Assembly (NCBI GenBank): GCA_965222155.1
Contig: CBDCTH010000012.1
Location: forward strand, 1,728,001-1,792,000
Origin: Gammaproteobacteria bacterium
GTDB lineage: Bacteria; Pseudomonadota; Gammaproteobacteria; Eutrophobiales; Eutrophobiaceae
Direction: 5' to 3'
Length of the DNA: 64,000 nucleotides
The notes beneath the pieces are model-generated. The model was given only the letters and a program-made list of their open reading frames with translations. It was not told the origin of the DNA and searched no databases. The stretch's first letter is position 1. Each line of letters opens with the position of its first letter. Positions 28,885 to 40,813 of the stretch are shown piece by piece. The position numbers and the translations under genes were made by a program.

Positions 28885-29157
28885 GGTCGTTACACACTGC
28901 CCCATCAAAGTTTTTCATACCGTAATTCAGGTTCAGCAGCCAAATACGACTATGCGGAATCAAGCGTAAAATTTACGGTATTTTCATTTATAATGTTGAA
29001 TTCCCTAAAACTGAATTGTTTATTTCCGATAGCAACAAGCGACCTGGTGAGAAATCCGGGCTAGTTCAATGCACATAAAAAATGATACAAAATCGCTTGA
29101 TTCTGGATTATATTGTATAGAATTCTCGTCCTGGTGTAACCGCGTGTAGAAGGAAAC

Positions 29158-29622
29158 ATGATTAAACTCAATGTAAATGACAAACATTATGAACTGGACG
29201 TCGAAGCGGACACGCCTCTTTTGTGGGCGCTCCGGGATGAGATTGGATTAACCGGCACCAAGTTCGGTTGTGGAATAGCCCAGTGCGGCGCCTGCACCGT
29301 TCACGTTGATGGAAAACCCATGCGTTCCTGTGTTCTCCCTGCGGGCAATGTCGGCAATAAAAAAATTACCACCATCGAACACCTGGCCAAAGACGGCTAT
29401 CACCCGGTGCAACAGGCCTGGCTGGAATTGCAGGTACCACAGTGCGGTTATTGTCAATCGGGACAACTGATGTCCGCCGCCGCCTTGCTGGCAGATAATC
29501 CTTTACCTTCCGATGCAGATATCGATAAGGCCATGTCAGGCAACATTTGCCGTTGCGGTACATATCAGCGCATCCGCGCAGCCATTCACCGCGCCGCCGA
29601 ATTACAACGGGAGACCTATTGA
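29158..29622 (+). CDS. IorA/CoxS-like (2Fe-2S)-binding subunit
   Basis: [45 protein letters not shown]. Confidence 0.92.
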
Positions 29623-29623
29623 G

Positions 29624-30661
29624 TTGGAGTTATCCGGCCGGGTGGTTACCGGGACAGGCCGGGCTGCGGGTTTTACCGAACTCGGATATGCAAAGAAGCA
29701 ATTTCTCGACAAACTGGGTATCGATACCTGGCCCGGCACACTTAATGTAAAACTGGACGACACAGAGTCACTTGCCGACTGGCAATCACTCAGGGATGGA
29801 GACGGCATCGGTATCAGCGACCCTGACGGTAACAGCTGTCATGCCCGCAGTTACCCGGTACAAATCAACAACCAGGTAACCGGGGCCATAATCTTTCCCG
29901 AGATCAGTGGTTACCCGGCTGACCAGGTAGAGATTATCGCCCCGGTTTCACTGCGCCAACACCTCTCATTGAACGACGGCGACCTTCTCAGACTAAACAT
30001 TATCAGACCTGTCAGAGCCAGCGCTGTCCTGTTTGACCTGGACGGCACGCTGGTCGATACCGTGGGCGCATTTTACCTGCTCGCCAAACTGACCGGAGCC
30101 GAGTTCGGCCTGGAAATATCCAAAGATCGCATGTATGAGACCTTGAATCACGGCATTTCCTATTGGGAGCATGTCGTGCCGAACTCAGTGGAAGATCGCC
30201 CGGCCATGATTGATAAGCTGAACAACAGGGCCATGCAACTCTGGCCCGATATTATCAAAGACAAAGCCGGGGTTTTCTCTGGTGTGTACGAAACCCTGTC
30301 AGCCCTCAAAACAGCGGGTTATACGTTGGGTATAGTCACGGGATCAGGGGAGCGATCCCTGGGATTATTGTATGAACTGGGCGTGGCTGGACTTTTCGAC
30401 GCGGTCATTACCGGCCCCGACGTCAAAAAACGAAAACCGGATCCGGAAGGCCTGTATAAATGCCTGAAACGCATGGACGTTACCCCGGGCGATGCGGTTT
30501 ACGTAGGAGACAGCGTGATCGACATGCAGGCAAGCCGTGCCGCGGGAGTCCTGCCCATAGGGGTACTCACCGGCGCCGGCACGTCTCCCACCTTATGCAA
30601 GGCCGGGGCCTACAGGATCGTCAGCAGCCATGAGCAGGTGATGGATTTACTGGCGACCTGA
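29624..30661 (+). CDS. CTP-dependent riboflavin kinase (DUF120)-HAD phosphatase fusion
   Basis: GRVVTGTGRA, WPGTLNV, EIIAPVSLR..L.LNDGD; then FDLDGTLVD, VTG, KPDPE, GDSVID; probable TTG start at 29624. Confidence 0.8.
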   Translation: MELSGRVVTGTGRAAGFTELGYAKKQFLDKLGIDTWPGTLNVKLDDTESLADWQSLRDGDGIGISDPDGNSCHARSYPVQINNQVTGAIIFPEISGYPADQVEIIAPVSLRQHLSLNDGDLLRLNIIRPVRASAVLFDLDGTLVDTVGAFYLLAKLTGAEFGLEISKDRMYETLNHGISYWEHVVPNSVEDRPAMIDKLNNRAMQLWPDIIKDKAGVFSGVYETLSALKTAGYTLGIVTGSGERSLGLLYELGVAGLFDAVITGPDVKKRKPDPEGLYKCLKRMDVTPGDAVYVGDSVIDMQASRAAGVLPIGVLTGAGTSPTLCKAGAYRIVSSHEQVMDLLAT

Positions 30662-31123
30662 GCGACCTCTGGGAGAATCCAGCTCGTAGCCACGCTGTTC
30701 ATAATCGAATCCACCCAGTTCGAGACGTTTCAGATCCGTTGCCTGCGGCGACGCATAATAGGCCCGGATTTCCTGCATCAAACCCGTACCCGTATCGAAC
30801 ACGACCCACTCGGCGCCACGCAGGACCGTACCCTGGCTGGTCTTGAAATGGGTCCATTCAATCACCGCTTCTCCCTTTTGCGCGTCGATTAGCAAAGCAT
30901 CAATGGTCCAGTACGAACCGCCCTTCCGCACCGCGGCGCACCAGCGTTCGGCGATCTTCGCCGCACCCCGGAATGGCCCTTCATACATACCCGGCGGAAA
31001 ATAATGGATGGCATCGGGCGTGAAGCAACGTATTATTTTCTCCCGGTCAGCCTCATTACAACCGTCGTAGTATTCACGCATCAGGGCTTCCATTTTTGCA
31101 GTGCTCAAATGTTCTATTGCCAT
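30647..31123 (-). CDS. SnoaL/NTF2-like protein
   Basis: YYDGCN..D...CFTPDAIHYFP...AVIEWT...EIRAYY. Confidence 0.75.
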   Translation of the reverse strand: MAIEHLSTAKMEALMREYYDGCNEADREKIIRCFTPDAIHYFPPGMYEGPFRGAAKIAERWCAAVRKGGSYWTIDALLIDAQKGEAVIEWTHFKTSQGTVLRGAEWVVFDTGTGLMQEIRAYYASPQATDLKRLELGGFDYEQRGYELDSPRGRSGRQ

Positions 31124-31137
31124 GATTATTACCTTAT

Positions 31138-31200
31138 TCTGTAAAATTCGTATTAATGACCTGTTTTTTTCGTATTAACAGTCTGTAAAATTCGTATTAA
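31138..31200. repeat. Three direct repeats with 22-bp period
   Basis: TCTGTAAAATTCGTATTAA (31138), CCTGTTTTTTTCGTATTAA (31160), TCTGTAAAATTCGTATTAA (31182). Confidence 0.8.
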
Positions 31201-31273
31201 CCTGTGGAAAAGTTCAAGTTGATAGTATATATTCTGCGACATCAAGCAAAATCAAATCCACGCAATACGACCC

Positions 31274-31528
31274 ATGTACCCTAGAAGCATACAACCTTTC
31301 CTTGAGGAATTACTCACGGAATTCCGTGTGCTTTACCTGACGGGACCTCGGCAGGCGGGCAAAACCACACTGGCGCGTGCCGTTGCTGTAAAACTGGGTA
31401 TGGACTACATCACCCTGGATGATCAAGCAATTTTGGCATCCGCTAAATCGGACCCACACGGGTTTATACGTTCCTTGGGCGCCAGGAAAGTAGTATTGGA
31501 TGAGTTTCAATTAGCGCCAGGTAGTTGA
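31274..31528 (+). pseudogene. Truncated AAA+ ATPase (AAA_14/DUF4143 type)
   Basis: MYPR...LTGPRQAGKTTL...YITLDD...VVLDEFQ, then stop; the family is normally about 400 aa. Confidence 0.8.
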
Positions 31529-31712
31529 AGACCGTCGCGAATACTACTAGCTGTATGTGGTAACCAATTGCGCTACCGAACCCAATCTTCAGGAACCTGT
31601 TCATGACCCGGCACGGCTACGGTGGCACGAAGTTACCAAGGTCGCCCACTATTATTTTGGCGTGGATGCCCTGAAGCAGCCCCTATAGGTGAGGGGCATA
31701 TACAACAACATC

Positions 31713-32849
31713 ATGAACCGCGTTGAACGCTATGAAAGCTTGATCAAGGCGCCTTCCCCGGCCCCGTCGCACTGGGCTGCTTCCTGTACACACCAGGAAT
31801 GCTCACTGCATCAGTTGTCGCCGTATATCGGCAAGTTAAAAAGTATTATTGCCCATGACCTCATTTTGCAATACAGCAAACCCGGTGATCTGGTAGCAGA
31901 CATGTTCTGTGGCAGCGGGACTGTACCCCTGGAGGCAGCCCGCCTTGGGCGACGCGTATTTGCTTCCGACACAAACATATATGCTGTCACGCTGACCAGA
32001 GGCAAACTTGAAGCGCCCGCTGATACCGAAACTGCGATTAAAGTTCTTAACCGCCTTCTGGAACATGCAAAAACACTACCTGTGCCGGACCTCAGGTCTG
32101 TCCCGAAATGGGTTCGTGCTTTCTTTCACCCTCAGACACTCAAAGAGGTATTCCGTCTCAGTGAATTTCTCAGCAACGAACGGCATCATTTCCTGCTGGC
32201 GTCCCTGCTTGGTATTCTGCACCATCAAAGACCTGGATTTCTGTCGTTTCCCAGCAGTCACCTCGTTCCATATCTTCGGTCAAAAAAATACCCCAGGGAT
32301 AGCTATCCTGAACTTTATCAATACCGCTCCGTTGCCGAGCGCCTGCAAGCTAAGGTAAAGCGCGCACTGAAACGCCCACCAACACGGTCATTAAATAAAT
32401 TTGTCGATGACATCAGCAGGTCCTCTGTGGAATCCGTTAACCTCCCTGACGATATCGATTGTGTTATCACAAGCCCCCCTTATATGAACGCGCTGGATTA
32501 CAGCCGTGATAATCGTTTGCGTCTCTGGTTTCTCGGTGAAACCCACCTGGAAGCACCAGATCGCGCGTTAGCGAGTCTTCATGCTTTCAGGAAATTAATC
32601 AGTTCACTGTTGAAACAATTGCAACAAAAGATGCGCTTGGGCGGTCATTGCGTCTTTGTCATAGGCGAACAGACCTTTCGGGGTGGAGGACGATTTCCAT
32701 CCGAAGAGTTAACAAGGATTTTTTTATCACCCCCTTCAACATTTCAGCTATGCGATGTTGTCAGCGACATCATCCCTGACGTTCGCCGTTCGCGGAAATA
32801 TTTTGTCGGGGTAAAACGGGAGAATATTCTTGTATTCAGGAAGTTTTGA
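31713..32849 (+). CDS. DNA amino-methyltransferase (SPPY, probable N4-cytosine)
   Basis: HQLSPYIGK, DMFCGSGT (motif I) preceding ITSPPY (motif IV). Confidence 0.85.
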   Translation: MNRVERYESLIKAPSPAPSHWAASCTHQECSLHQLSPYIGKLKSIIAHDLILQYSKPGDLVADMFCGSGTVPLEAARLGRRVFASDTNIYAVTLTRGKLEAPADTETAIKVLNRLLEHAKTLPVPDLRSVPKWVRAFFHPQTLKEVFRLSEFLSNERHHFLLASLLGILHHQRPGFLSFPSSHLVPYLRSKKYPRDSYPELYQYRSVAERLQAKVKRALKRPPTRSLNKFVDDISRSSVESVNLPDDIDCVITSPPYMNALDYSRDNRLRLWFLGETHLEAPDRALASLHAFRKLISSLLKQLQQKMRLGGHCVFVIGEQTFRGGGRFPSEELTRIFLSPPSTFQLCDVVSDIIPDVRRSRKYFVGVKRENILVFRKF

Positions 32850-32851
32850 AT

Positions 32852-35342
32852 ATGCGTAGAAATCTTCCTCCAAAAGAATTATTTCTTGGAAAAACGATTG
32901 GAAGATTTCCAAACCATGTAATTCAAGAGCATGTCAATTCAGGCAATAATGGTCATTTGTTTCTGGCCTTCGATCAATCAACAGAAAGCAAACTCGCGTT
33001 TAAAGTTGTTCCATCTGACAATCTGCCGGATGATGAAGATGAACAACAAATCTATTTAATTGAGGCAAAAAAGGCCAATATTTTACAGCACCCCTCCGTT
33101 GTCCAATACATTGATGTTTTTCCATATCATGTTCCCGATACACTGGTGAAGTGTGTGATTTTTGTATGTAATTTCGTGGATGGCATAAACCTTAGAGACT
33201 ATATAAAGAAAAACCGCTCGGAGATTACAATTGTATTTCTTGCGAACAATGTTTGAGCTATTGTATGAGCTTAAACAACGCAAAATGACCCATGGTGACC
33301 TGCATGCAGGTAACGTTCTTATCTCGAAATCTGAATATGACATCTACGATAGAATTACCTTCCGTGTAACAGACTTTGGTGTAGGTGAATTAACAGGGCT
33401 TTTAGCTCACACAAATGATTATTTATATACTTCTGATACGCTCAGGCAACTGCTGGAATGTATAGAATATCAAAATTGTGAAAGTCGGGATCGATATGCC
33501 TACGAAATTCTTCGTCATGATTTTTTGGAACGGCATCTGACTGAGACAGATCCTCTGGCTGACACATTAGCAATGCAGCCGCAGAAAATGCTGGAAAAAC
33601 TGGACTCTATAGATGGAAAGTATCTGGAGAAGACAACAGGTGAAATCGTTACAACACTAGTCACACCCTTCGACTACCCTAACTGCGAGCAAATAGGAAA
33701 TTCCCATCTTTTACTCAAGAACCTCTATTCCGACCGTTTACTTGGATTATTGGAAATTAGGGCGCGATCAAATTTAATGTTAACCGGACCTCGAGGATGT
33801 GGAAAAACTACTGTTTTCCGTGCACTGAGCCTCGAATATTTGATCTCGACTGAAGATGATCAGCCAAACCGTATCAACTATATCGGCATCTATTATAGAT
33901 GCGACGATCTCTATTTCTCTTTTCCAAGATATAAGACTCCTGGACGATTTGAAGCACTGGACGTCCCCATGCATTTCTTGATCGTGACGTTGCTGGCAAC
34001 TGTACTGGAACAGATTGGCACCTGGGCAAAAAAGCATTTTCCGGATGAATTCAAAAAGAAAGAAGAAGCACTTGTTCTGGAACTTTGGAATTTATTTGAA
34101 TGGCCGTCTCTGAATAATCCAAATGCCAGGCAACTGGCTACGCTAATAAATAAATTAAAAACCAAGGAAAGAAAACGCGCTGCAAAAAAGCAAAATTTTG
34201 TTCATGTACAGACTGAACCTGTCAAAGGCTATTTTGGCCCTGGGGTTATGTTTGATGCTTGTCGTCTTATACGCGACAAGTTTTCTTTCCTTAACGACCG
34301 TCCTTTCTATTTCTTTATTGATGATTATTCTCACCCGAAAATTACTAAGGAGTTACAAGCAAACCTGAACCGATTGCTCATGCACCGCAGCTCGGATGTT
34401 TTTTTCAAACTCTCAACAGAGAGCCCTGTCTCTTTTGTACGCGAGGATGTGGACGGTAAACAGTTTGTAGAATCTCGTGAGCTTGATTTAGTAAATCTCG
34501 GACTGAGATACATCAAAGATGACAAAAATCAAGCGATTGAATTTCTTGATGACCTATTCAGCCGTCGCTTCCAAAGGGTTGATGGATATCCTGTACAAAC
34601 TCTTGAACAACTACTGGGATCAATACCACGCAATGAAAACGCCACGGCCCGTGCTTTTCGAGAGAAACAAGGGCGTCAAAACTATGCTGGCAGAGAAACT
34701 ATAGCCGCAATGTGCAGCGGCGATATTCACTATATTATTCGTCTTGTCGCGAGGATGGTGGATGATTATGGGGGGCCAGACGCTCTGGCAAACTCCCAAA
34801 CACCTTGCATACCTCCTCAACAACAACATGATTCTATCCGCGCTGCTGCAGGTTCGTTTATGGAGTCTGTACGCACTTTACCTCGTTGGGGGAAACAACT
34901 TGCAGAGGCAACGGCAACATTCGGTAGTGTTGCGCATTCTTATCTCATGTACGAAACATCAACCAACGAAGCTAATGAGCCTCCTCACCAAGCTTCCCGG
35001 ATTGAACCATACGAGACATTAAATTTATCCGAGGAAGCACAAGAAATACTTGATGAACTATTACGCTACTCAATTCTCATTGAAGATCCCCGGGGGAAAA
35101 GTCGGAGAGGAAAGGTTGTGCCAAGATTTTTTCTCAGGCGTTATTTAATCCCCCACTTCCACCTGACATTCAGCCGTAGAGACTCCCTCGAATTGGAAAA
35201 TGACCAGATCGAAACCTTATTGTGTAAGCCGCAGACATTCGAGGAACAGATGAGATTAAAATCTTTAGAAGATGCAGCGCGCCGGCGCCGAAGAGATCCA
35301 GATCAACTGCAACTCCTCGAAGAGGAGGGTCCGCGTGTTTGA
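32852..35342 (+). pseudogene. Ser/Thr protein kinase-P-loop ATPase fusion, split by a frameshift near 33235
   Basis: ORF1: SGNNG Gly loop, AFKVV, EAKK, HPSVV. ORF2: HGDLHAGNV, TDFG, then GPRGCGKTT and FFIDD. Confidence 0.8.
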
Positions 35343-36429
35343 TAAAAATATCCTAAGGACAGATGAACGATTAAGCAAGGTAGCCTGGCCTGCTTTGCAA
35401 ACAATCGATGTTCCCATAGTAGGATCTGGTGACTGTTTGTTGATATGTGCGGGATTTGAAGATCGATCTATCGAAACACTACGCCGAATACTGGATGCTA
35501 GAAAATCCGGCTTCGTTCTTGGATTAGTAAGTTATTTACCCAAGCAACCCGAGAATAGGCAAGAAGAATTACACACAATCATCCAGAATGCTGATCTTCA
35601 AGTAAGAAGATTTGTTTATGACCGTGAAAATCCAGCAGGTATAGGGAAGGAGCTAAAAAGCTTTACAGAGGGATTCGACCGCGTTTTTATTGATATTTCC
35701 GGCATGTCACGCCTGCTTATCGTTCAGTTACTGGTTGCCCTGTTGACTCGTGACAATGATTCAGTAACGCTAATCTATGGCGAGGCCGATGTATATCCAC
35801 CATCTGAAGATAAATTCGAACAAGATTACAGAGAGAATAATTCCAATCCGATCCCAGGTTACCTGTCGTCTGGAATTTTTGAAATAGCAACAACTCCTGA
35901 ATTGAGTTCTGTATCTATGTTAGGTGAAGCCCTCAGGCTGATAGCATTTCCGTCCTTTGATCCTGCACAGCTCACGAATTTGCTCCATGAATTACAACCT
36001 GCTTACACAGAATTTATTCATGGCGCACCACCAGCCCGAAAGAACAAGTGGAGAACGGAGGCAATCCGCAAACTTAACCGATCTACACTGGATGAACTTC
36101 GGGGGAAAAGGGACCATGAGACCTCCACGCTTGACTATAGGGAGACACTACATAAGTTGCTTAAGATATATGCAGAACGCAGTATGTTTGATCGCCTTGT
36201 AGTTGCTCCGACCGGTAGTAAGATGCAAGCAGTAGCTGTGGGTTTATTCCGCGCGGCGTTGTATGACGTTCAAATCGTTTATCCAACTCCACAGGTTTTT
36301 ACGACACCGAAAGAACATACTTTAGGGCTGCGTCAACTGTATCAACTAGATATACCTGCCGAAGCTTTTATTAATGTCATCGGGAACTCCAGGGACGATT
36401 TCAGCGATACGCTCGAAACACATCCATGA
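35335..36429 (+). CDS. Uncharacterised protein with two CARF-like Rossmann repeats
   Basis: GTG start after GAGGAGG, overlapping the upstream stop; CAGFEDRS...IDISGMSR...LIY and FPSFDP...APTGSK...IVYP. Confidence 0.6.
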   Translation: MFDKNILRTDERLSKVAWPALQTIDVPIVGSGDCLLICAGFEDRSIETLRRILDARKSGFVLGLVSYLPKQPENRQEELHTIIQNADLQVRRFVYDRENPAGIGKELKSFTEGFDRVFIDISGMSRLLIVQLLVALLTRDNDSVTLIYGEADVYPPSEDKFEQDYRENNSNPIPGYLSSGIFEIATTPELSSVSMLGEALRLIAFPSFDPAQLTNLLHELQPAYTEFIHGAPPARKNKWRTEAIRKLNRSTLDELRGKRDHETSTLDYRETLHKLLKIYAERSMFDRLVVAPTGSKMQAVAVGLFRAALYDVQIVYPTPQVFTTPKEHTLGLRQLYQLDIPAEAFINVIGNSRDDFSDTLETHP

Positions 36430-36580
36430 TTCCAAAGGAGTGTAAACGTCTGGCGGAGGTGGATTTTCCAATCATTTTGGTATCCAGATACACAGGCCAT
36501 TAGAAATCTATCCGGCATGGGCATCCTTCTACGCTTTAACACCCTTCAAAAACTCGTATGAACCTATGAAAAAATTGAAG

Positions 36581-37871
36581 GGAACCTCTAATAATTGACG
36601 ATTTCCGTTACTATCGCTATCTATGCGGGCAAGCCGGGTTCTTTTACATATAAATGTATTCGGCCAGTGGCGAAATGACCCCGTGCTCGCCTTCATCGAC
36701 CCCTTAATCGGGCCGTTTTATTGCCTTCGGGTGTCGGTTTGACACCAGCCGGGCGTTGTCTCCGTCAAGCAGGCGCGCTGACCCCTTCCAGGTAACACAG
36801 TCGTCGCATGTTATACCCCAGGTTCAGCATCCCTATGGCCAACTCACTGCGCGCCAGCCCGATACAGCGTATCAGCTTGGCCCGGGTCGCACACTGCGCC
36901 CCGAACACGTGCTCCACCCGCACCCGCACCTTGGCCCGCGTGCGGTTGCCCTGCTGCGCCCACGCCGTCAACGGCTTGTTGCGGCGCCCCTTGCGCTGAA
37001 TGTGGCTGCGGTAGCGCTGGGCCTGCAAGCGTTCCTCCTGCTCCCTGGAACGGTAGGCGCGGTCCGCCCATATCGCCTTGCTGCTGTTGTGCTCATCCAA
37101 CAACTCATCGAACAACTGCGAGTCATGCACGTTGGCCGGCGTCACCGCATACTTGCGTACCAGCTTGTGTTTGTTATCGACATTCACGTGGTTCTTGTAC
37201 CCGTAATGACTCCTGCCCCGCTGCTTCGTCCAACGAGCCTCCACGTCCTTCTGCCGCCGCTTGGATTTGGCTGCCTCATCGTCCCAGCCCGCAGGCGCCT
37301 CCCCCGCCTTAAGCGCCGCATTCTCCTCGCGCGTGTTGCGCTGCACCGGCACCAAGGAAGCATCCACCCACTGCCCCGTGCGCGCCCGATACCCCAAGTC
37401 TGCTAACTGCTCGGCAAACCGTGCAAACAGTTCCTCCGTCAATTTCAGCTCCACCAACTTCTCACGAAACGCCCAAAAGGTCTTCGCAGCCGGTGCCCGA
37501 CGCACATTATCCAACCCCATAAACCGCTGAAAACTGCGCCGGTACTCAAGCTGATATTCCAACTGCTCATCACTCAACCCGTACAAATGCTGTAACACCA
37601 ACCCCTTGAACAGCAGCACCTCATCCCGACGCGGGGCGCCCGCATTGCGCTTGCGGGTCGTGGGTCGAATACGCACCAATAGCGGACGAAACGCCTCCCA
37701 GTCCACTACCTCACCCAACCGCACCAGGGGATCCTTCAGTTTATTCAAGCGGGTGTCTTGCAAGTCAAACAACGAACCGAATATGTCTTGTGTCTTCATG
37801 AAACCACCTTGAGGAAAAAGTTGAAATAAGTCACCGCTATTATATCATTCGATTGAATAAATAGAGGTTCC
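36581..37871 (-). mobile_element. Complete IS5-family insertion sequence (1291 bp)
   Basis: GGAACCTCTA terminal inverted repeats; TTGAAG direct repeat at 36575-36580 and 37872-37877. Confidence 0.9.
36765..37799 (-). CDS. IS5 family DDE transposase
   Basis: VDWEAFRP, YGLSDEQLE, VDAS, HYGYKNH, NVHDS, ADRAY, RVRVEHVF. Confidence 0.93.
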   Translation of the reverse strand: MKTQDIFGSLFDLQDTRLNKLKDPLVRLGEVVDWEAFRPLLVRIRPTTRKRNAGAPRRDEVLLFKGLVLQHLYGLSDEQLEYQLEYRRSFQRFMGLDNVRRAPAAKTFWAFREKLVELKLTEELFARFAEQLADLGYRARTGQWVDASLVPVQRNTREENAALKAGEAPAGWDDEAAKSKRRQKDVEARWTKQRGRSHYGYKNHVNVDNKHKLVRKYAVTPANVHDSQLFDELLDEHNSSKAIWADRAYRSREQEERLQAQRYRSHIQRKGRRNKPLTAWAQQGNRTRAKVRVRVEHVFGAQCATRAKLIRCIGLARSELAIGMLNLGYNMRRLCYLEGVSAPA

Positions 37872-37914
37872 TTGAAGTTGGTAACATACATTCTGTAGTT
37901 ACTATGATAACGCT

Positions 37915-39438
37915 ATGAAAAGACGGGAATTCATAATCGGGACAACCCTGGGCCTGGCATCAGCCCAGGTTCCTTCGCCACTAGTTGCAGGGGTCAAGTT
38001 CTCCAGGAATCCGTTTACGCTGGGTGTTGCCTCCGGTGACGTCACAGAAGACTCGGTGGTGCTGTGGACACGGCTTGCGCCGGAACCGCTGGCGGTGGAC
38101 AGCGGGATAAAAGATGTCGCCATACCTGTGCATTGGGAATTATTTCAGGATGAAGCCATGCAAACGCCCATCAGGCAAGGTGAGGAATTAGCCATTCCGC
38201 AGCTTGCCCATTCTGTACATGTTGATGTACAAAACCTTGAACCCGGACAAGAGTACTGGTACCGGTTTTCAGTGGGCAAACACACCACGGAACCGGGACG
38301 TACAAAGACCCTGCCTGCTGCCGGCAGTCAACCCGCTTCCGTTCGTTTCGTCACTGTATCCTGCCAGAACTACACACACGGTTATTTCGTGGCATACGAC
38401 CATATCATTGCAGACAACCCGGACTTCGTAATTCACCTGGGTGACTATATCTATGAAACATCCTATGGCGAGACCTTCAGAAGGCACGAAACTGAAGACA
38501 TGCCGTTTACACTTGACGGTTACCGGCGACGGCATGCGTTGTATAAAACCGATGAATCCCTTAAATGGGCTCACGCCAGGCTACCTTTTTTTGCCACGCT
38601 GGATAACCACGATGCCGTGATTGATATTGATCCTGCCGGACTGGCGCGCAGAGCCGCCGCGTACCAGGCCTGGTATGAACACATGCCGACCCGCGGCTAC
38701 GGCAAGCCCGGCGACAACCGGTTTCAACTCAGCAGGACTATCCGCGCTGGGAGACTGGCACAAATCAACCTGCTGGATACCCGCCAATTCCGCGCCGAAC
38801 AGTCCCTCTGCGCTGGCGGCGATCCCGCTTATGGCTTCGGCAACTACCGGCCGCGCTGTCCTGAAATGTTCGCTGAGCAGCGCAGCATGCTGGGACAGGA
38901 GCAGGAACACCGGTTGGTGCAAAGTATACTGAACAGCACTGCGGCCTGGAACGTGTTAGCCTCATCAAGTGTCTTTTCGCCCTTTCGCCTGGAGATCGGT
39001 AAACAGATATTCCGCTATGTAGGTTCCTGGGACGCTTACCCTGCCAACAGGGACAGGGTCGTCAACGCAATCAACCGGAGCAAGACCGGCCAGGCCGTTA
39101 TCTTGAGCGGCGACATGCACTCCTTCTGGGCCATTGACGGCGCGCAGTCCATGGAAGCTGCCGAACGAATTCCGGTTGTAGAGTTTGTTACTTCTTCCAT
39201 CACGGCCAACTGGCCCGAAACAATGGCAAAACCCATTACCGATAACCTGGCTCAAAACCCCCAGATAAAACTCTACGAACCGGATAAACGCGGGTACCTG
39301 TTACATGAGATTACCGCGACGGAGTGGCAAACTACGGCCCGCGCTGTGCATAACCCCAGGGATGCACAGTCAAATGCTTTCGACCTGGCACGTTTTGTTG
39401 TCGAGAACGGTAAACCCGGTTTCAGGCAGATACTTTGA
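37915..39438 (+). CDS. phoD: PhoD-family alkaline phosphatase (Tat)
   Basis: KRREF; FTLGVASGD, VLWTRL, HLGDYIYE, DNHD, LDTRQFR, WDAY, SGDMH. Confidence 0.88.
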   Translation: MKRREFIIGTTLGLASAQVPSPLVAGVKFSRNPFTLGVASGDVTEDSVVLWTRLAPEPLAVDSGIKDVAIPVHWELFQDEAMQTPIRQGEELAIPQLAHSVHVDVQNLEPGQEYWYRFSVGKHTTEPGRTKTLPAAGSQPASVRFVTVSCQNYTHGYFVAYDHIIADNPDFVIHLGDYIYETSYGETFRRHETEDMPFTLDGYRRRHALYKTDESLKWAHARLPFFATLDNHDAVIDIDPAGLARRAAAYQAWYEHMPTRGYGKPGDNRFQLSRTIRAGRLAQINLLDTRQFRAEQSLCAGGDPAYGFGNYRPRCPEMFAEQRSMLGQEQEHRLVQSILNSTAAWNVLASSSVFSPFRLEIGKQIFRYVGSWDAYPANRDRVVNAINRSKTGQAVILSGDMHSFWAIDGAQSMEAAERIPVVEFVTSSITANWPETMAKPITDNLAQNPQIKLYEPDKRGYLLHEITATEWQTTARAVHNPRDAQSNAFDLARFVVENGKPGFRQIL

Positions 39439-39477
39439 TTCGTAATCCATCAATGTTATTTTCGTGACCACGTTGCC

Positions 39478-39598
39478 CGTCATTCCGGCGCAAGTCGGAA
39501 TCCAGTAAAATGGACCTTCCCTGGATTACAGCATTCCGGGATAAGCTTATAGATAAGGGAGGTTTAATAACTGGATTCCGGCTTGCGCCGGAATGACG
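39478..39598. repeat. CGTCATTCC...GGAATCCAG palindromic element
   Basis: 29-bp inverted arms, each itself palindromic; relatives at 41935-41982, 49950-50046, 56624-56790 and about 62215-62290. Confidence 0.85.
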
Positions 39599-39613
39599 AC
39601 AGAGAGCGTAATT

Positions 39614-40813
39614 ATGCCTGATTTCACTTATGAAATAGAAGACATCAAACTGGCGCGGCAAGGGTTGGAGCGCATAAACTGGGTACGCGAGCGTATGCCG
39701 GTCTTACGCCAGGTCAAAGAGGACTTCAGCAGGACCAGGCCTTTTGCAGGCTTGCGTATTGGTATCTGTTTGCACGTGGAAGCAAAGACCGGTGTCTGGC
39801 TGGACGCACTGACCAGCGGCGGTGCGGAGATCGTAATCACCGGCTGGCCCGGAACCACCCAGGATGAGGTGGCTGCCGCATTGGTGGCAGAATACAACGT
39901 CCGGGTATTTGCCAAAAGAAGTGAAACCTTCGATCAGCATCTTGATTACGCGGCAAAGGTGTTATCCACCGAACCCAATCTGATTGCCGATAATGGCGCG
40001 GATTTGCATGTGCTGGCGCTTACCAATCCGGACTTTTCCAGCGCAAAAGCGAAGATTATCGGCGCTACCGAGGAGACTACCACCGGCGGTTTCCGTTTAC
40101 GCGAGGACATTGATGAACACATCTTCCCCACCCTCATTATTAATGACACTCGGGCAAAACGCATTATTGAAAACCGCTACGGCGTCGGCCAATCTGTGGT
40201 TGACGGCATCATGCGCTGTTCCAACCTGCTTATCGGCGGCAAGCGGGTAACTGTCATCGGTTATGGTTATTGTGGCCAGGGTATCGCCCGCGCCTTGCGT
40301 GGCCTGGGCGCGCGCGTGACCATAGTCGATATCGATCCCCTGACGCGATTGGAAGCGCATCTGGAGGGTTATCATACGACTGAACTGGAACAAGTCCTAC
40401 CGGTCAGCGATATCGTCATCACCGTCACGGGCAGACCGGGAGCACTCAAACGAGAACATCTGACACTGATGAAGGATGGCGCCGTATTATGCAACGCCGG
40501 TGCTTTTGAAAACGAGATCGACCTGCCCGGCCTGCGCGAACTGTCCTCTGAGCCACGCCAAATCATGCCGGATATCCAGAAATTCAAGCTGGGCAACGGT
40601 AAAATTATTTACCTGTTTGGCAAAGGTAACAGTGTTAACCTGACCGCCGGTGACGGTAATCCCATAGAAGTTATGGATCTGGGTCTGGCTCTGCAATCCC
40701 TGTCCCTGGCATACCTCGCGACTGACAGCCAATCCTTGCCTGCAGGACCACAGACAGTGCCAAAGGAAATCGAAGACGAAGTGGCCGTCAGGACCTTGCG
40801 GGCCTGGTCATAG
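39614..40813 (+). CDS. Adenosylhomocysteinase-like protein (divergent)
   Basis: CLHVEAKT, TTQD, EETTTG, NRYG, GYGYCGQG; several active-site motifs altered. Confidence 0.8.
   Translation: MPDFTYEIEDIKLARQGLERINWVRERMPVLRQVKEDFSRTRPFAGLRIGICLHVEAKTGVWLDALTSGGAEIVITGWPGTTQDEVAAALVAEYNVRVFAKRSETFDQHLDYAAKVLSTEPNLIADNGADLHVLALTNPDFSSAKAKIIGATEETTTGGFRLREDIDEHIFPTLIINDTRAKRIIENRYGVGQSVVDGIMRCSNLLIGGKRVTVIGYGYCGQGIARALRGLGARVTIVDIDPLTRLEAHLEGYHTTELEQVLPVSDIVITVTGRPGALKREHLTLMKDGAVLCNAGAFENEIDLPGLRELSSEPRQIMPDIQKFKLGNGKIIYLFGKGNSVNLTAGDGNPIEVMDLGLALQSLSLAYLATDSQSLPAGPQTVPKEIEDEVAVRTLRAWS

Follow-up and report, generated by a model that had tools for sequence, protein, structure and literature searches.

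CARF and SAVED sensors receive cyclic-nucleotide alarms from a linked cyclase and usually drive a fused nuclease or protease. The cassette described here ties a predicted tandem CARF protein to a kinase-ATPase and a methylase, with neither cyclase nor nuclease. It lies at positions 31713-36429 of the window, a 64,000-nucleotide stretch of a Gammaproteobacteria bacterium genome (Eutrophobiaceae; GenBank assembly GCA_965222155.1, contig CBDCTH010000012.1, positions 1,728,001 to 1,792,000), and coordinates given without a locus name are positions of this window on the forward strand. An open reading frame (ORF) scan placed the three genes of the cassette there, all on the + strand:

31713..32849, + strand: gene 1, amino-methyltransferase of 378 residues (Pfam, PADLOC and ortholog motifs)
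32852..35342, + strand: gene 2, kinase plus ORC/Cdc6-like AAA+ ATPase (Pfam, orthologs and fold matches)
35335..36429, + strand: gene 3, stand-alone predicted tandem CARF protein of 364 residues (family lengths, model and PADLOC CARF6)

Among catalogued families, the CARF6 kinase-AAA-CARF family comes closest. In the passages on this family, Makarova et al. (2014; PMC4012209) describe a "small family" of fusions of Zn ribbon, kinase, AAA+, CARF and winged helix-turn-helix with an arginine inside the P-loop, and propose for it only a CARF feeding a kinase pathway; those passages contain no system, methylase link or function. The cassette resembles that family in its Ser/Thr/Tyr kinase, its AAA+ ATPase with a P-loop arginine (GPRGCGK here) and its CARF, and differs in that the CARF protein is encoded by a separate gene and has two repeats, that no Zn ribbon was seen and that a dedicated methyltransferase gene is always present. 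The PADLOC model of the kinase-AAA-CARF fusion (PDLC01925) matches gene 2 at 331-816 (4.5e-19) and gene 3 at 859-1175 (3e-8), colinearly, and gene 3 also matches eight CARF6 stand-alone models at 3.2e-15 to 1e-4. No system-level match for the trio was found in PADLOC, NCBIfam or Pfam. The first-pass annotation could match the module to no named system, and this stands, yet with the CARF6 models the module is not wholly uncatalogued; the trio is catalogued in part and never characterised. No paper describing it was found in a literature search that stopped short of the 2020 CARF classification (doi 10.1093/nar/gkaa635, PMC7498327) and of the supplements of PMC12839542, and a literature search on PF24389, the Pfam family of the gene 2 ATPase, found none either.

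Three further systems share parts of the cassette. In BREX (bacteriophage exclusion) type 2 / Pgl, according to the relevant parts of PMC12839542, a methylase, a Ser/Thr kinase and an ORC/Cdc6-clade ATPase stand in one defence operon. The cassette has the same combination of methylase, kinase and ORC/Cdc6-like ATPase, and BrxC matches the fold of gene 2, but PglZ, PglW, BrxD, BrxHI and a NERD nuclease on the kinase are all missing, the methylase is small and not PglX, and a CARF protein is present. An assignment to BREX type 2 / Pgl was rejected, as no PglZ, PglX or BrxC family match over threshold was found in genes 1-3; the sole PglX/PglXI match on gene 1 (3.5e-7) falls on the motif I stretch. 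MADS, in the portion of PMC13662399 that sets out its genes, consists of eight genes (mad1-mad8) with two ATPase-nuclease modules (MAD3/4, OLD-like, and MAD7/8). It has a methylase, a kinase and ATPases in common with the cassette, which has three genes only and no nuclease. MADS was likewise rejected: the best PADLOC match of the kinase N-lobe is mad6 (9.7e-12), with weak matches to mad2 (3.9e-7) and mad8 (2.7e-5), and the NCBIfam MAD6 score is 24.9 bits against a cut-off of 460. These mad2, mad6 and mad8 matches are at the domain level only, and the trio matches no named system in PADLOC or NCBIfam, as first annotated. Can1 and the SAVED proteins share with gene 3 two CARF-type Rossmann repeats in one polypeptide, which would form a pseudo-dimer; unlike them, gene 3 has no fused nuclease, protease or other effector and no linked cyclase or cas gene. 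A fourth system, Hma, is related by location. It is described as a "Type-1 BREX-related" system of HmaA helicase-nuclease, HmaB DUF1156 methylase and HmaC DUF499 ATPase in the section of PMC12839542 devoted to it. Hma is the host operon of the cassette in four loci (L001, L013, L016 and L012) and its relics flank the window cassette, but the cassette is not among the three defining Hma genes, nor among the auxiliary effectors named in the accessible parts of that paper.

The three genes are a real, conserved, horizontally mobile and self-contained unit. Of 57 genomic loci fetched via the gene 3 family, all contain the CARF gene, 51 the kinase-ATPase and 44 the methyltransferase. In 41 of the 57 the trio is complete and its gene order unchanged, a single ORF of more than 780 residues encoding the kinase-ATPase, and the gaps between genes in these cassettes are mostly -4 to +3. 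The remaining 16 loci are cut by a contig end or visibly decayed (e.g. L010 and L055-L057). The first-pass annotation had read the genes as one operon and had named failure of their homologs to co-occur as evidence to the contrary; the homologs do co-occur, at those 41 loci, and the operon with its tight coupling is conserved. By record titles, the carriers belong to Pseudomonadota, Nitrospirota, Binatota, Acidobacteriota, Verrucomicrobiota, Myxococcota, Thermodesulfobacteriota, Spirochaetota, Latescibacterota and Actinomycetota, together with one archaeal bin. Carriage is sparse: among the other genomes sampled, the cassette was found in 1 of 22 from the same genus and in none of 400 from the phylum, no second cassette or Hma copy was found in its own 4.55-Mb genome, and a search of 72,556 plasmid records and 50,697 phage records gave a single match, to a plasmid record. 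Opposite-strand genes lie on both sides of six complete cassettes (L032, L034, L035, L036, L038 and L051), from which it was concluded that the trio can stand alone.

A deep variant of the set was found behind an Mrr-type nuclease gene on a plasmid of the cultured Bradyrhizobium quebecense, where the four-gene cassette lies at 69.5-74.6 kb of NZ_CP088025.1. It comprises the methylase (hhalign 5e-102 against the family), a separate kinase of 246 residues, a PF24389 ATPase of 652 residues, a tandem CARF (1.6e-36) and thyX. The thyX gene, which encodes an FAD-dependent thymidylate synthase, was also observed directly beside the cassette in three genomic loci (Pfam Thy1 4.6e-50 in L053); the positions, including that of the plasmid, are L053:1353-2279, L023:5206-6186, L010:10804-11169 and L058:9905-10828. 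This adjacency may indicate a link to thymidine or modified-base metabolism.

Within the window, the coupling noticed at first reading, a 2-base gap followed by an overlap, is borne out by the ORF coordinates. Gene 1 may start at ATG 31713 or GTG 31689 and ends at 32849, and gene 2 may start at ATG 32852, leaving the 2-base gap, or at TTG 32846, giving a 4-base overlap. The gene 3 ORF spans 35272..36429 with ATG 35272 as its first start; GTG 35335 fits the orthologs of 364 residues and gives an 8-base overlap with gene 2.

The assignment of gene 1 as an amino-methyltransferase was supported by motif I, DMFCGSGT, which lies about 190 residues ahead of motif IV, SPPY (TSPPYMNALDY), and by matches to Pfam N6_N4_Mtase (3e-12; 47.4 bits against a cut-off of 26.7) and PADLOC MTase_II (5.7e-22). 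Residues D63, G67, G69 and S254-P-P-Y257 are invariant in 37 orthologs, so that the motifs of N6-adenine/N4-cytosine amino-methyltransferases are retained and the first description of this gene stands. It is 91% identical to the ortholog in L001, a locus from the same genus, and appears intact. The SPPY motif by itself would suggest N4-methylcytosine as the product. A very long gene lies upstream of the kinase-ATPase in two Vicinamibacterales genomes (L008:3360-7457, 1366 residues; L009:4105-8490, 1462 residues). The L008 gene includes the cassette methylase as its C-terminal part (phmmer 1e-161), behind an N-terminal extension, and has no Pfam match at 1e-7.

Gene 2 encodes a Ser/Thr-type kinase (residues about 10-250) followed by an AAA+ ATPase, a lid and a C-terminal winged helix. 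In the window assembly it is divided between two ORFs, 32846..33256 with the kinase N-lobe and 33231..35342 with the catalytic loop HGDLHAGN, the DFG motif and the ATPase. The kinase was deduced to be of the Hanks type from the G-loop, beta3 lysine, alphaC glutamate, HxD...N and DFG motifs, residues G33, K53, E67, H145, D147, H149, N152, D172 and F173 being invariant in 39 intact orthologs, and its profile matches PknB-like, ULK and DAPK kinases at 5e-17 to 1e-11. The Hanks set had been called complete, which is borne out for subdomains I-VII only, as the match ends just after DFG.

The ATPase portion was assigned to the ORC-CDC6-like family PF24389 (1.3e-51; 176.5 bits against a cut-off of 27). 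Its P-loop GPRGCGK and Walker B DDYS are invariant in the 39 orthologs, in agreement with the Walker A/B ATPase first proposed. A model of this part (window 33621-35339; predicted local distance difference test score, pLDDT, 89) matched the following solved structures:

2qen, an archaeal Walker-type ATPase: Z 13.1, 326 residues aligned, model positions 15-515
2qby_B, Cdc6/Orc1 on origin DNA: Z 13.0
7jgr_G, Drosophila ORC-Cdc6: Z 12.8
2fna_B, SSO1545: Z 11.8
9zll_A, BrxC: Z 10.4

Foldseek returned the same families at a probability of 1.00. The score, the Walker motifs and the lid and winged helix arranged as in Cdc6/Orc1 all place gene 2 among the ORC/Cdc6-like AAA+ proteins. Within the protein, conservation is highest in the winged-helix stretch (mean column identity 0.74) and lowest in kinase stretch 61-135 (0.49). 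Compared with the same-genus ortholog, the kinase N-lobe (32863-33300) has diverged much further (48-73% DNA and 56% protein identity) than the remainder of the cassette (77-92% DNA identity); the N-lobe may lie in a recombination tract or be under diversifying selection.

The division of gene 2 was traced to 11 bases that the window lacks after 33236, relative to both L001 and L002, which shift the frame. This gap is the sole indel in the three genes, compared with L001, that is not a multiple of three. When contigs of public sequencing runs were placed on 31000-38200, the 11 bases were found behind 33236 in 4 of 4 runs from four studies, and the contig of run X1 was otherwise identical to the window over 33104-36607. 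Restoring the bases by hand brought the two ORFs into one frame with no stop, and 11 of 14 residues across the restored site equal those of the L001 ortholog. Since the public contigs lack the frameshift, gene 2 is probably intact in nature, and the split would be an assembly error or a minority allele. The first-pass annotation had called for a repaired operon; with the 11 bases carried by four public runs, probably no repair is needed.

Gene 3 was matched by no Pfam or NCBIfam family, and its assignment as a tandem CARF protein comes from a structural model made with 23 family members (pLDDT 79; predicted template-modelling score 0.85). When this model was compared by VIA-align with 48,161 solved chains, the best 31 matches (Z 14.9 to 8.2) were all CARF or SAVED. 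The top match was Can1 (6sce_A; Z 14.9; 240 residues over both repeats; root mean square deviation 3.9), followed by Card1, Can2, Csm6, Csa3, VC1899 and Cam1 at Z 10-13 and by SAVED domains at Z 8-10. Foldseek also gave Can1, at a probability of 1.00 and a template-modelling score (TMq) of 0.46. Sequence identity to these fold matches is 6-14%, and the model has the six-stranded Rossmann-like core of the CARF superfamily. The first reading of gene 3, two Rossmann-like repeats that are CARF-like and free of an effector, agrees with these matches.

Further support came from the positions of conserved residues. A CARF signature, [DN]x[ST]xxx[RK] after strand 4, is given in the motif description of PMC4012209. 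In gene 3 it is found in repeat 1 as D120-I-S122-G-M-S-R126 after the strand at 116-120, with D120, M124, S125 and R126 invariant. Repeat 2 has T293-G-S-K296 after the strand at 287-291, with the basic residue kept at a spacing one residue shorter. Since invariant residues sit directly after strands 1 and 4 in both repeats, the pocket is deduced to be under selection, which argues for a putative ligand-binding role. Gene 3 appears intact.

A word-indexed search gave at least 1190 members of the gene 3 family at E <= 0.001. An exhaustive search gave 804 clusters at 50% identity at the same threshold, 524 of them at E 1e-10 or better and 184 at E 1e-30 or better, and none of the members listed is named other than "hypothetical protein" or left unnamed. 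No fused form was found in the "longer" word-index search, which is weak evidence, and two were found among the 150 best of the exhaustive profile search: P0253, a tandem CARF with a histidine kinase (HisKA 1e-27, HATPase_c 9.6e-33), and P0204, a tandem CARF with a calcineurin-like phosphoesterase (2.5e-10). These are hints only, because both are singleton clusters from one or two contigs each. In two loci a histidine-phosphatase-family gene (His_Phos_1 5.9e-11) stands directly after the CARF gene on the same strand (L017:11089-11592 and L018:11128-11619); it could be a counter-enzyme to the kinase. Together, the two fusions and this neighbour hint at the CARF module as a phospho-signalling input.

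From these domains and their genomic context, we infer that the cassette may be an immune system in which methylation marks self, the ATPase senses DNA, the CARF protein gates and the kinase executes; to this reading a probability of roughly 0.45 is given. The methyltransferase would mark a short motif in host DNA. DNA would be bound by the ORC/Cdc6-like AAA+ module and the conserved C-terminal winged helix, with ATP-dependent assembly on unmarked DNA such as that of an incoming phage or plasmid, and the assembly would gather the N-terminal kinase domains and thereby activate them. The kinase would then phosphorylate host or invader proteins and so stop the infection. Having no nuclease, the cassette would be expected to act by abortive infection or growth arrest and not by cleaving DNA; the first-pass annotation had likewise seen no restriction nuclease, and the cassette carries none of its own. 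The tandem CARF protein would act as a ligand-binding regulator with a pseudo-dimeric nucleotide pocket like that of Can1 or SAVED, signalling to the kinase-ATPase, to which it is fused in distant relatives. The mechanism put forward in the first-pass annotation, with an ATPase that senses unmodified DNA or inhibition of the methylase and fires the kinase, is likewise conjectural. We regard the cassette as a promising candidate for a phage-defence system of a new type.

Several observations weigh against this reading. No enzyme able to make a CARF ligand is present within the cassette. In the five complete genomes with an intact cassette, which were searched with three profiles (SMODS, Csm1 and Cmr2), two (G002 and G005) gave no match over cut-off to any of the three and only weak matches to the HD part of Csm1. 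For gene 1, only the motif I stretch matches solved DNA N4-cytosine/N6-adenine methylases (9.6e-9 to 1e-4), and it also matches RNA methylase families, weakly. The window N-terminal fragment of gene 2 alone scores 29.3 bits with Pfam Pkinase, below the cut-off of 31.7. The match of the kinase to solved kinases covers positions 11-195 and ends just past DFG, the individual matches stopping at profile positions 187-213, or about kinase residue 170-200. The C-lobe is probably short, as the match stops there, and a non-protein substrate for the kinase is conceivable. Among the 15 best-supported population differences in the three genes, 9 are nonsynonymous and 6 synonymous, a ratio compatible with weak constraint in this lineage after the loss of Hma. 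Finally, the Logan contigs in which the 11 bases were found drop rare variants, and the frameshifted allele may persist as a minority.

Restriction-type genes (type I, type III, Hma, BREX-2-like and Mrr/Res) were found beside or around the cassette in at least 18 of the 57 loci, which places it in defence contexts, as had been supposed. Type III genes, with Mod upstream and Res downstream, enclose it in L002-L005, L014 and L015, and Mod-like genes adjoin it in L042, L045 and L047. An HmaA-type SNF2 helicase-nuclease gene lies upstream and a DUF1156 methylase gene directly downstream in L001, L013 and L016, and L012 has a rearranged Hma form. Type I hsdM, hsdS and hsdR are present in L019, L031 and L055, and L007 contains an Mrr/Res fusion. 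In L025 the cassette is a separate unit beside PglW-like and PglX-like genes (BREX-2-like).

The window locus itself was deduced to have belonged to such an arrangement. Synteny between the window and locus L001, which comes from a genome of the same genus (G012), extends to both sides, and the following segments were aligned:

L001 748-2810 with window 29077-31137, 79% identity
L001 6186-11198 with window 31513-36532, 82% identity
L001 17904-20765 with window 37886-40807, 76% identity

The gene order in L001 is HmaA, the trio, HmaB, a gene of 320 residues and HmaC. The three Hma proteins were identified by PADLOC (HmaA 1.5e-180, HmaB 4.6e-108, HmaC 7.8e-100), and HmaA also matches NOV_C at 7e-21. 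The 320-residue gene between hmaB and hmaC (L001:14086-15045) has no Pfam or PADLOC match. In the window, the flanks of the cassette on either side consist of these features:

31274..31528, + strand: 5' fragment (84 codons) of an AAA_14-type ATPase gene (Pfam AAA_14 4e-10; PADLOC PDC-S01 5.2e-27)
31513..31688, + strand: 3' relic of hmaA (DNA alignment and tblastn against L001)
36426..36540, + strand: 5' relic of hmaB, a DUF1156 adenine methylase gene (DNA alignment and tblastn against L001)
36575..37871, - strand: IS5-family insertion sequence (16-nucleotide terminal inverted repeats; DDE_Tnp_1 transposase)

Only the last 59 codons of hmaA remain, from the end of the gene for the SNF2 helicase with its NOV_C / PD-(D/E)xK nuclease. 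Over residues 1079-1137 of L001 HmaA, tblastn gave 80% identity and showed the relic to be interrupted by TAG stops, including one in frame at 31548-31550 where L001 has TGG. The hmaB relic has 38 codons, 76% identical by tblastn to residues 1-38, with one TAG and one TAA, and its start overlaps the gene 3 stop (ATGA). With these 59 and 38 codons as the only remains, the window does not contain an Hma system. The 320-residue gene and hmaC are gone, the window has no similarity to L001 over 31138-31512, and the AAA_14 fragment and the IS5-family element occupy the gaps. The window cassette is the survivor of an Hma system deleted on both sides, at the same chromosomal site as in L001. A truncated ATPase gene upstream and an IS5-family transposase gene downstream (36765..37799, minus strand; DDE_Tnp_1 1.4e-25) had been recognized correctly from the start; the accompanying picture of a free-standing operon between unrelated genes was mistaken, since the trio is an insert in a now-deleted Hma system and its flanks are Hma relics.

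The AAA_14 fragment is not part of the three-gene module and stands where most of hmaA is in L001. It is joined to the hmaA relic at about 31512 and is absent at the same site in L001, which suggests that this hotspot has lost yet another gene or element. The 16-nucleotide inverted repeats of the IS5-family element lie at 36581-36596 and 37856-37871. The IS5 copy is polymorphic, as 36574 is followed directly by 37872 in contigs from runs X5 and X7; because these contigs lack the element, the loss of hmaB and hmaC was independent of this copy. At least 6 near-full copies of the element were observed in its own genome, together with many derivatives of about 115 bases that keep only the two ends and resemble miniature inverted-repeat transposable elements. 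Contigs also join 31213 to 37996 (X3 and X5) and 31511 to 37899 (X5), with sides of 30-45 letters, and island-free strains are not concluded from these joints.

The G+C content is 0.40-0.46 over 32-36 kb against 0.51-0.57 in the adjoining kilobases, in line with the AT-richness first noticed. No tRNA gene was found at 20-45 kb of the window in a search for the limits of the island. Over 31000-36700, promoter-like sites (7 against 10.4 expected) and terminator-like sites (7 against 5.3 expected) were nowhere above chance. In the RNA run X20, 0.06 of the sampled words were present.

The frequent restriction-type neighbours bring in a different explanation, that the cassette is a guard or backup of its host restriction system (Hma, type III or type I). 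A block of that system by a phage, for instance by a DNA mimic or inhibitor, would be sensed by the ATPase or the CARF protein, and the kinase would then trigger abortive infection without any DNA discrimination by the cassette itself. PrrC inside EcoprrI follows a similar logic. So does PARIS beside BREX, as presented in the pertinent part of PMC12839542. A quick maximum-likelihood search on the kinase-ATPase gave a tree in which 11 of the 15 rows of clade I lie in or beside restriction-like operons. In the same tree, L001 (Hma) is sister to L004 (type III) with a support of 100, so that the host system switches between close relatives, and host changes on the starred branches number at least 3 for Hma and at least 2 for type III. 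The cassette is inserted within operons, where it separates mod from res (L002-L005 and L014) or hmaA from hmaB (L001 and L013). Against a guard, the cassette always has its own methyltransferase, which would be needless for that role alone; clade II (24 rows) is mostly free-standing, with 18 rows without a restriction-type neighbour; six cassettes are flanked by opposite-strand genes; the window cassette has outlived its Hma host; and the tree comes from a quick search only. As both free-standing and embedded copies are seen, it was concluded that the trio is autonomous yet often lands in restriction operons, and the guard explanation is considered unlikely.

Mobility and persistence could also be accounted for by a role outside immunity, with the cassette acting as a selfish addiction module or regulating phospho-signalling epigenetically. 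Protection against a toxic kinase-ATPase would then come from the methylase, the cassette would spread since its loss is harmful, and it would be found in defence islands only because mobile DNA is tolerated there. The balance of PglX and PglZ in Pgl, as given in the abstract of PMC4365076, offers an analogy. This explanation is consistent with a distribution that is rare and patchy yet extends over many phyla, with the movement between host operons and with the persistence of the window cassette after its neighbours were deleted. It is made decidedly improbable by the phage-defence precedents that exist for all four parts (amino-methylase, Ser/Thr kinase, ORC/Cdc6-like ATPase and CARF) and by the lack of the plasmid or phage carriage expected for a selfish element, with the single match among the plasmid records and none among the phage records.

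A role as a receptor acting in trans would have the CARF protein bind cyclic oligoadenylates or related molecules from type III CRISPR or from CBASS, with the kinase-ATPase as an extra effector arm. The best fold matches of gene 3 bind cyclic oligoadenylates of four, six or three units (cA4, cA6 or cA3; Can1, Card1, Can2, Csm6, Cam1 and Cdn1), SAVED domains are among them, and 3 of the 5 complete carrier genomes exceed the cut-off, 2 of them for SMODS and 1 for Cmr2. The other 2 carriers have no such match, cyclase and cas genes are not recurrent among the 57 neighbourhoods, and the conserved methyltransferase would be left without a role. As judged by the three profiles searched, dependence of the cassette on CBASS or type III CRISPR is unlikely, and the receptor explanation as a whole is held to be very improbable.

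It is just as improbable that the window copy is a dead relic, with a real 11-base gap, gene 2 as a pseudogene and an orphan methylase and CARF gene left behind, as the gap in the window sequence itself, the Hma flanks destroyed on both sides and the 9 to 6 excess of nonsynonymous polymorphisms are opposed by the 11 bases in the contigs of all four runs from four studies, by the otherwise complete identity of run X1 over 33104-36607 and by the other indels relative to L001 all being multiples of three.

A bolder reading may also be considered. The cassette could be an immune system built on a CARF-gated kinase, independent of any cyclase and provided with an epigenetic self-mark of its own, and could also serve as a portable "second line" that inserts into restriction-type operons (Hma, type III or type I), although we regard this as doubtful. 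With similar reserve, its CARF protein might sense a nucleotide product that arises only while restriction is in progress or blocked, and its output might be protein phosphorylation and not nucleic-acid cleavage. If true, this would be a new class.

For annotation, the split of gene 2 in the assembly should not be read as a pseudogene before the reads are checked. The family is sizeable, its 804 clusters containing, among the members listed, only "hypothetical protein" entries. The cassette is testable at the bench, since a cultured Bradyrhizobium carries one version of it on a plasmid. The repeated insertion into restriction operons provides a test case for the wiring of layered defences. If the cassette defends, it would join epigenetic self-marking, BREX-like ORC/Cdc6 DNA sensing and CARF signalling, which have so far been studied apart, and would show an output by phosphorylation.

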